From Sphaerodactylus townsendi (taxonomy: Eukaryota), in the NCBI RefSeq assembly GCF_021028975.2, contig NC_059428.1, forward strand, positions 149,482,001 through 149,546,000: a stretch of DNA of 64,000 bases, written 5' to 3'. The notes under the pieces are model-generated. The model was not told the origin of the DNA and made no database searches. It saw nothing but the letters and a program-made list of their open reading frames with translations. The translations under genes were made by a program, and so were the position numbers. This document shows, piece after piece, positions 28,001 through 30,004 of the stretch; positions within the stretch are counted from its first letter, which is position 1; every line of letters begins with the position of its first letter.

Positions 28001-30004
28001 GCAAGAGCAGACATCCCCTCTCCTGCTGCAAGCAAGGGGGAGTTCAGAACACAAAGGCAGCCCCCTTCCCTCCAACCCTTTATTTCAATCTCTGGGTCAA
28101 TGCCATCCACGCTGCTGAATCTTTTTATCCACCCCACTCCACTCCACTCCACCCCACCGCCCACACACACACACACACACAATGACCAAAGACTTCAATT
28201 TCCAGGCTGGCAATAAAGCAAATTGACGCAACACAGACAGGTGGGAATCCAAAGTGCCTGCAGCTGATAAGGTTACTTCTGCAAAGCCACTCTTGAAGAA
28301 CCACAGGCTTGCACTTTATTGTATAGACAGCCAGGACACACTTCACATCCCTCAACCTGACTTGTCTGCTCCAAAGCAGCACCGCCAAGGAAGAAAAGCA
28401 AGCATTCCAGAAGCTGCACCTGAATGCCAGGTGGATCTCTCTGGAGGGACAGGTATGCAAGCCAGGGGCCACCTTTTACCATGACCCACTACAGCTTTGA
28501 CAGTGCCTCCATTAGTCTGACAGACAGAAGCCACAGGAGGGGGGGGGGGTATCTCTGGACCACCCTCTCTTCCCATTCACAGCCATGCAGGCAAGGAAAA
28601 GAAATACCTGGGTTTTAAAAGTCTCTTCGATGTCTGCGCTGAGCGTGCTCCACTTATCAGCTTCCTGGAGCGACTCAGCTGCGAGCTGCATCTTGGACTT
28701 CACGTGATCCAGTTCCACCAACACCTGGGATAGTAGCAGTAGTGGAAGTCTTTATTGGCATAAACATATTAATAAAGTACAGACCATAAGATACAGAAAG
28801 AGCCAAAAACACAAATCGCTTCGGCTTTAAAAGCTCTAACAACAGACATAAAAGTCAAATAAACAATATTGTAATATTACAAACCATTTAATGAGCTAAT
28901 CTATAATATTTAATTAAAAAATTAGCTACATTCGCACAAACAGTAGGATCAGGATTGTCTAAGATTAAAGGGATCTCAAGAGTATCAGTTAATTGATTAT
29001 ATAAAAATGGAGTAAGGAGAGACTGGTTCATCCTAACTTTAGCAAATCTTGGACAGTGGAAGAAAATGTGATCGAGCATCTCAGTGTGGCCTGAGTTACG
29101 TGGGCATAGTCTTCTTGGTTGGCCTATTTGTTGGTATCTACCATACAGAAGCACAGAGGGCATAATATTAAATCGGGCAAGAGGCATAGCTCTTCTTTGT
29201 GTCGAATTTAAAAGATTAGCTATGTGCCCTTGCTCTAGGGGGAATGAGCAGAGTTAAGGGGGAACATGTTTTCCTAGCGGCAACTATCATATCATGATAC
29301 TCTTGTTCTTGAAACGTAGTTTTCAAACAACTATATGCCTCAGATGGAGTGAGAGAATACAATGAATCTAATGAAAGGCCGATAGTACCATTTTTTTTCC
29401 TGCGACAGAGAGAACAATTGGTGGTGGTGACACATGAAACAGATCCTCAGCGACACCAGTCCCCAGGATAGGTGCCTCGGTGCCCTCCCCCTCCAGTACC
29501 TGCATGGACTGTGCTGTGTCCTGCTCCAGCCTTTGGATGTCTTCCCTCACCAAAACCATCTGTTCCTTCAGAAAGGTTGCCTCTTGCTTCAGGGCCTCCA
29601 CCTCCCGCAGGACTCGGGGCATGCTCTGCAGCGCTTGGTGGCTCGTCTCTGCGGAAAGAAGTGGCAGAGGTGGTCAGGCACTGCAAAGCCTCGTTTTGTA
29701 GGAACCACCGGAGCGACAGAGGCTGGGACTGGAAACAGGCTGCCTCCAGACTGTCAGGAAGACAGCCCTGCAAGGACACAGAGGCACGCTGTGTGTATGT
29801 GTGTGGGGGAGGGGAGGGCACACTCTACAGCTCCTCACCTTCCACTGCTTTGTTGACCTCTTGGATAAAAAGCTGCAGCTTCATCACCAGGGTGGCGGCG
29901 TGGGCATCCACCTTGCCAGGCGCCTCCTGCTGCACTGCTCGGAAGGCCCCATTCACCCAGGCCTTCACCTCAAAGTCCTCCGCCAGGAATTTGGAGAAGT
30001 CCAT
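16079..30004 (-). CDS. COG7: Conserved oligomeric Golgi complex subunit 7, ~767 aa, 17 coding exons
   Basis: Exons (high to low) 30004-29839, 29648-29500, 28724-28608, 27925-27757, 25755-25673, 24595-24473, 22498-22300, 21000-20873, 20390-20236, 19887-19771, 19303-19238, 18885-18702, 17845-17708, 17582-17499, 17219-17105, 16529-16386, 16245-16079; 2304 nt in frame. Starts [21 protein letters not shown]; contains [21 protein letters not shown] and [18 protein letters not shown]. Confidence 0.95.
16805..17089 (-). mobile_element. Squam3-like SINE
   Basis: Same consensus, (AAG)n tail on +. Confidence 0.8.
21036..21108. repeat. Perfect 35-bp tandem duplication
   Basis: CTTCGCCATTTCTATGGCACTTATTTATTCAGGAT twice. 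Confidence 0.9.
24887..25184 (+). mobile_element. Squam3-like SINE, full length
   Basis: A/B boxes through (CTT)n tail. Confidence 0.85.
26230..26448. mobile_element. Penelope-like pLTR palindrome centred on GGATCC
   Basis: ~90-bp inverted arms about 26320-26325; ends ..GTGAAAACCTTTGACAATA. Confidence 0.75.
26323..26365 (+). ncRNA. Minimal type I hammerhead ribozyme motif (Penelope-type)
   Basis: TCCT-CTGAAGA-T-GCCAGC..GCAGGT-GAAAC-GTC-AGGA: stem I TCCT/AGGA, core CUGANGA and GAAA, palindromic ACGU stem III, predicted cleavage after C26361. Expression and activity unknown. Confidence 0.6.
27150..27370. mobile_element. Penelope-like pLTR palindrome, rearranged, hammerhead core mutated
   Basis: Two tandem CTGAAGATGCCAGC after GGATC; GAAAC changed to AAAAC. 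Confidence 0.7.
28728..29398 (-). mobile_element. 5'-truncated non-LTR retrotransposon (RTE-X-like ORF2 C-terminus) at the COG7 exon 3 acceptor
   Basis: AT-rich; encodes [25 protein letters not shown] (C-terminal zinc-knuckle region); 3' end AATAAA plus (CTA)-like tail; flanked by CCTG/CCTG. Clade assignment by recall. Confidence 0.8.

Follow-up and report, generated by a model that had tools for sequence, protein, structure and literature searches.

Locus and insert

Judging from translated exons, the window (the whole 64,000-nucleotide stretch of Sphaerodactylus townsendi DNA that was analyzed) holds, in order, what we take to be SCNN1B, COG7, PLK1, EARS2, UBFD1, and ERN2, every name but that of COG7 being our presumption. 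No GGA2 was seen among the translated exons between COG7 and EARS2; PLK1 lies there instead. COG7 is read on the minus strand, as are all features of the insert described below. An acceptor precedes its ATG (30054), so the first exon is non-coding and the exon numbers used here count coding exons. Exon 2 (29500..29648) ends in phase 0, with the donor following 29500. Exon 3 (28608..28724; 117 nt) has phase 0 at both ends, and Pfam recognizes the COG7 domain on it. Downstream of the exon 2 donor lies a 100-nt segment of the original intron (29400..29499), which contains a C/T tract, a branch-point-like TTCAT at −36, and a stranded acceptor AG at 29401-29400. This is followed by an insert of 675 nt (29399-28725) with a GC content of 36%, compared with 53–58% in exons 2 and 3.

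In transcript order, the insert comprises the C-terminus of a LINE ORF2 (28888..29398), 5′-truncated and frameshifted and bearing a C-x-C/H/C zinc-knuckle-like motif; a LINE 3′ UTR (28757..28887), in which branch-point-like motifs lie at −49, −45, and −37 relative to exon 3; the AATAAA of the LINE 3′ end (28751..28756), 26 nt before exon 3; and a degenerate (CTA/CTG/CTT)n tail (28731..28750), now a pyrimidine tract. A probable 7-bp target-site duplication flanks it, with the 5′ copy at 29399..29405 and the 3′ copy, which holds the likely working AG (28726-28725), at 28724..28730. The first-pass annotation had placed the insert and both acceptors correctly; the upstream AG indeed closes a 100-nt intron, the reading frame opened there runs into TGA after 19 codons, and a sense AATAAA lies shortly before the working AG. 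The same annotation had described CAGG alone as duplicated. CAGG is indeed a perfect repeat, but the two copies, anchored on the right, match at six of seven bases (TC[G/C]CAGG) and at eight of ten, and a 7-bp duplication with one mismatch is more likely than CAGG alone. The last GG of the 5′ copy may be microhomology with the LINE.

Elsewhere in COG7, a SINE-like repeat (17105-16780, minus strand) starts a few bases past a donor (17105), and a direct repeat of ~38 bp (21035-21110, minus strand), with an AATAAA in each copy, lies just upstream of an acceptor (21000). At the COG7 promoter, a 247-bp stretch (30660-30905) is 84% identical to 38279-38520, downstream of EARS2 in the interval between PLK1 and EARS2, and 31387-31536 likewise matches 38531-38672; this is perhaps a duplicated promoter piece.

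Judged by its protein relatives, the insert is a 5′-truncated copy of an APE/RT non-LTR retrotransposon, that is, a LINE. Its earlier assignment to the 3′ end of a LINE ORF2 was confirmed by tblastn, which aligned it with residues 375-535 of P0002, a protein carrying an RVT_1 domain (E 1e-24); the match beginning at residue 375 and the presence of the repeat tail indicate 5′ truncation with an intact 3′ end. A phmmer search with the ORF2 piece returned 40 relatives (best E 4.7e-12), two of them with RVT_1, and a profile built from 19 relatives reached a 1070-residue protein with endonuclease and reverse transcriptase domains; the profile match P0052 contains PF14529 and PF00078. Ten relatives were looked up, and the six named ones all come from lizards. 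The LINE is multicopy: summed contig depth rose to ~10,000 per bin, compared with 43–62 in the flanks of run X3. Tail units vary among copies of one family, loose contig ends at 28745-28751 continuing into (TCT)n, (TAC)n, or (CTG)n, and a LINE-internal loose end occurs at 29397 in run X6 (a consensus of four contigs, agreement 0.6). Pfam had no match for three LINE pieces, a word-index search with a LINE fragment gave none, and metagenome scans for the family found no family locus and one distant reverse transcriptase (30%). A profile search for chimeric host–LINE proteins returned three matches, all with LINE domains only. A Hemicordylus protein named MRPL19 isoform X1 (P0029) resembles ORF2 of this LINE clade, with no placeable host part, and is probably a misnamed element within the MRPL19 gene. 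We tentatively take the clade to be RTEX. The available part of one survey lists RTEX for Anolis (PMC7561263).

Sharing and age of the insertion

The insertion has the read support that the first-pass annotation called for: in runs from a list of ten, contigs bridge each of the two junctions in three organisms with different labels (A, B, and D). The 3′ junction is bridged in runs X3, X4, X6, and X7 (organisms A, B, and D) and the 5′ junction in runs X3, X4, X5, and X6 (organisms A, B, C, and D). Run X3 may be close to the source of the window, and organisms B and D come from two studies. Each junction is bridged separately; no contig among those listed spans the whole insert, which is what could be said for an assembly artefact, but with both junctions recovered in B as well as in D, an artefact is vanishingly improbable. 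None of the seven joints listed skips the LINE.

Divergence from the window is ~1% in organism B and 3–4% in organism D. Other copies of the LINE family (17 pieces) differ from the COG7 copy by 9–19%, which indicates that the COG7 insertion is old, the age estimate being rough. Among 15 COG7 proteins compared, those of geckos match the window best of the named ones (Paroedura 0.86, Eublepharis 0.84).

Run X5 (records 17 and 22) holds two versions of the COG7 exons, one identical to the window and one, covering exons 2 and 3, ~89% identical, and thus probably two organisms. Record 17 has 14 differences in 124 bases, nine of the ten listed falling at third codon positions; upstream of exon 3 its match to the window ends after CCAG, and the record runs on into a C/T-rich tract like the stranded one, 30 letters being visible. 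We read this record as an empty, LINE-free site in a more distant lizard. The upstream tract had been proposed as ancestral, and the LINE-free record agrees, having a comparable C/T tract immediately upstream of exon 3. It had also been proposed that TCGCAG are the ancestral acceptor letters; there the tract fits, but the record reads CCAG. At −4 it has C, like the downstream copy; the G of the upstream copy is thus probably a later change and TCGCAG a changed duplicate.

Two acceptors for exon 3

Acceptors were scored with a matrix built from 56 acceptors that had been placed by hand in the window, a crude measure that gave 12.1 bits to the stranded upstream acceptor (62nd percentile) and 3.5 bits to the downstream one (2nd percentile). 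A third AG, in an AAAG that lies 25 nt before exon 3, scored very low, at −5.9 bits. Pyrimidines occupy 14 of 19 positions in the LINE tail and in the old tract alike, the tail having four A. The proposal that the LINE tail now serves as acceptor tract stands in that no other tract precedes the in-frame exon 3 acceptor, but its use is a suggestion drawn from exon 3 conservation. Exon 3 is identical at 38 of 39 residues to Hemicordylus, Tiliqua, and Eublepharis (three of 12 compared; the rest share 33–37), and its single change is specific to organism A, being absent from B and D. With neutral drift of 4.5–9%, half of the distance between copies, four to eight changes would be expected at the 93 replacement sites, and the probability of at most one is 0.08–0.002. 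The exon is thus probably still coding, for which the downstream AG is needed, and this AG likely works. COG7 therefore likely still makes a normal mRNA, from which the LINE would be spliced out at the downstream acceptor copy with its tail as the pyrimidine tract.

Leakage to the stranded acceptor is plausible, since this site scores higher and closes a 100-nt intron. For introns of less than about 250 nt, the available part of PMC9225289 describes a preference, under intron definition, for the 3′ site closest to the donor; this preference points to the stranded COG7 acceptor and speaks against downstream use. Exon definition may act in the other direction: the 117-nt exon 3 could be defined from its own donor, whereas the 792-nt AT-rich exon opened by the upstream site would be poorly defined. 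Repression of LINE-derived sites perhaps aids definition of the 117-nt exon, as the accessible portion of PMC6108849 describes frequent repression of LINE-derived splice and poly(A) sites in human cells, mainly for antisense L1. Some transcripts probably still use the stronger stranded AG and meet the stop after 19 codons, to be degraded or cleaved at the LINE AATAAA. Two other routes around the insert were considered and rejected. Recursive splicing fails as no GT follows the upstream AG in COG7, and the one in EARS2 (see below) scores −7.3; donors within the LINE that would bring back the frame ahead of the stop score too low (−2.1, compared with a minimum of 2.2 among true donors).

Could exon 3 instead be mostly skipped, in frame, at the cost of 39 residues? 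The weak downstream acceptor and the phase of 0 at both exon ends would allow it, and in the available part of the NF1 report, four of 14 Alu insertions struck a 3′ splice site and led to exon skipping (PMC3219598). But A, B, and D all retain a conserved exon 3, and no joint of exon 2 to exon 4 was found among the 20 motif-bearing of 26 flagged junctions in 120 COG7 matches; we regard predominant skipping as very unlikely.

The AATAAA raises another alternative, in which the LINE acts as an alternative last exon or a poison exon that trims COG7 output through the stranded acceptor and the LINE's own AATAAA. As a last exon it would be cleaved near the downstream CAG, with the GU-rich beginning of exon 3 acting as the downstream element, giving a 123-residue product. 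The sequence elements of an intronic polyadenylation site are indeed present, AATAAA at 28756-28751 being followed 26 nt on by the GU-rich exon start, so that cleavage and acceptor use would overlap. The stranded acceptor is strong, closes a 100-nt intron, and has its branch-point-like motif at −36; its AG is unchanged in B and D among the differences listed, and an AATAAA so near an acceptor is unusual, none of the 56 other acceptors having one within 40 nt. Against this, persistence over 1–4% divergence is expected without selection, and organism D differs at three places in 29419-29430. The AATAAA belongs to the 3′ end of the LINE family, since other copies align through it, and the COG7 sense strand carries eight others, seven of them in introns; it is therefore not special by itself. 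The repression of LINE-derived sites cited above and the lack of an AATAAA at the matching place of the EARS2 insert also tell against such a role, and we consider it quite improbable.

A companion insertion in EARS2 and the question of acceptor targeting

A related LINE fragment lies in sense orientation in EARS2, 11 kb from the COG7 case (40155..40799, minus strand, with the fragment itself at 40787-40167 and an (ATTTGG)n tail). Its target-site duplication is a perfect 12 bp (40799-40788 and 40166-40155) and includes the acceptor AG along with ten exon bases. The upstream acceptor, 219 nt from the donor and followed by a stop after 21 codons, scores 5.6 bits, compared with −2.0 for the downstream one, which falls below all 56 other acceptors. 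The COG7 and EARS2 LINEs represent two families of one clade, with no DNA match to each other and with different tails. The EARS2 target resembles its own LINE tail, and the COG7 and EARS2 targets share only AGG(T). Both fragments (starting at 29398 and 40787, minus strand) are cut at nearly the same place in ORF2, no more than ~7 codons apart (P0002 residues 374-375 onward).

These two loci were the only ones of the clade found in the window with 54 protein queries, and both sit on acceptors, in a window that was chosen for this feature. Of 22 other repeat copies, none has its end 15 nt or less from an acceptor. Sites at which a nick would lead to a duplicated acceptor make up 616 of 128,000 (0.48% of the window); this share rises to 1.2% if a T stretch is required and to 5.9% if a long pyrimidine run is required, the enrichment being 2.4–2.6-fold with T-stretch motifs and 12-fold with a long pyrimidine run. 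Even with 12-fold enrichment, two of two on acceptors has a chance of ~0.003. For the RTE clade, the available part of PMC6007223 describes insertion ~10 nt after a T stretch, a 7–15-bp duplication, and a microsatellite tail linked to the target, and draws no link to splice sites. We infer that this geometry may resemble the order of tract and then AG. The COG7 site would fit the signature, with four T of five at P-12..P-8 and a probable 7-bp duplication, whereas the EARS2 site, with one T of five and a 12-bp duplication, is without the T stretch.

For further copies, 3′ flanks were taken from those loose ends that consist of a single contig, among 24 listed of 43. Judging from X3 versus X5 at 28751, consensus ties go to the alphabetically first letter, and this makes the coding strand look richer in T than it is; for this reason no loose end built from several contigs was used, and pyrimidine-rich 5′ flanks at 29309 (X3, X5) were set aside as two-contig consensus lines. 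Five flanks remained, some of which may not be LINE copies; by eye, two are acceptor-like, one is borderline, and two are not. One of the acceptor-like flanks carries a (TCT)n tail, and such a tail yields a 6-bit acceptor when joined to 54% of random targets. When tails were swapped into true acceptors, the median score was 16.6 bits for (TCT)n, 8.9 for (CTG)n, and 0.1 for (CTA)n. The flanks of these five copies gave no significant support for targeting. Nor did they point to one fixed target of the kind used by sequence-specific Tx1/R1-type LINEs, as the five single-contig flanks and the two window targets all differ. The titles and abstract openings searched, subscription papers being mostly outside their scope, contained no description of LINEs targeting splice sites.

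Would a squamate LINE clade nevertheless home to 3′ splice sites, inserting in sense at the AG, copying it, and rebuilding the tract with a pyrimidine tail so that its copies are spliced out? The coincidence of both window copies with acceptors, in two families with different tails, the absence of the 22 other repeat copies from acceptors, the scarcity of suitable nick sites, and the good scores of (TCT)n and (CTG)n tails all speak for it. But the window was picked for an acceptor insertion, two of the five flanks are not acceptor-like and one is borderline, one of the acceptor-like flanks is explained by its tail, (CTA)n tails make poor tracts, and the two targets have little in common. Such homing is a doubtful reading to which we give a small chance, and strict targeting of acceptors by the clade is unlikely, though a bias may exist. 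We find it reasonably probable that the LINE between the two acceptor copies of COG7 is instead tolerated by being spliced out at the downstream one, and that its position reflects a weak preference for pyrimidine targets combined with survival; the absence of a T stretch at the EARS2 site and the small chance of two of two even with 12-fold enrichment count against the preference part. Under this explanation, target-primed insertion would have nicked the site ~6 nt before exon 3, copying the end of the intron and the first base of the exon, and landing on the acceptor would follow from a weak preference for T- or pyrimidine-rich targets together with the survival of insertions that leave a usable AG.

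Insertions that duplicate an acceptor are already a known kind, represented by dog merle and NF1, and the COG7 LINE is a further real case. In the available account of merle (PMC7349775), a SINE lies at the boundary of PMEL intron 10 and exon 11 with the acceptor inside a 15-bp duplication, its tail serves as pyrimidine tract, and two acceptors can compete, as they may in COG7. COG7 thus shares with merle an acceptor AG in the duplication and a tail as tract, and lacks the antisense poly(T) element; merle is further set apart by being polymorphic, by a cryptic site inside the SINE, and by a known phenotype. The COG7 element is a sense LINE with its own pyrimidine trinucleotide tail, common to three organisms, and its rival site is the original acceptor. 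The accessible part of the NF1 report (PMC3219598) likewise describes insertions into the AG or tract, among them an AluY in sense orientation at the AG, flanked by an 11-bp duplication, and one acceptor struck twice. Those Alu insertions are L1-driven and poly(A)-tailed and cause skipping and disease, whereas the COG7 insertion is old and tolerated.

The COG7 locus offers a natural test of splicing, setting a weak acceptor on the exon side against a strong one that lies 100 nt away from the donor. From human data one would expect exon skipping or a switch to the upstream acceptor; the insertion has been tolerated across related lizards in a conserved Golgi gene. If the pattern of two of two were to hold genome-wide, it would represent a LINE insertion strategy not found described in the literature searched. 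And if homing were true, splice acceptors would be dispersed safe havens for a retrotransposon, which would leave behind ready-made poison or last exons.
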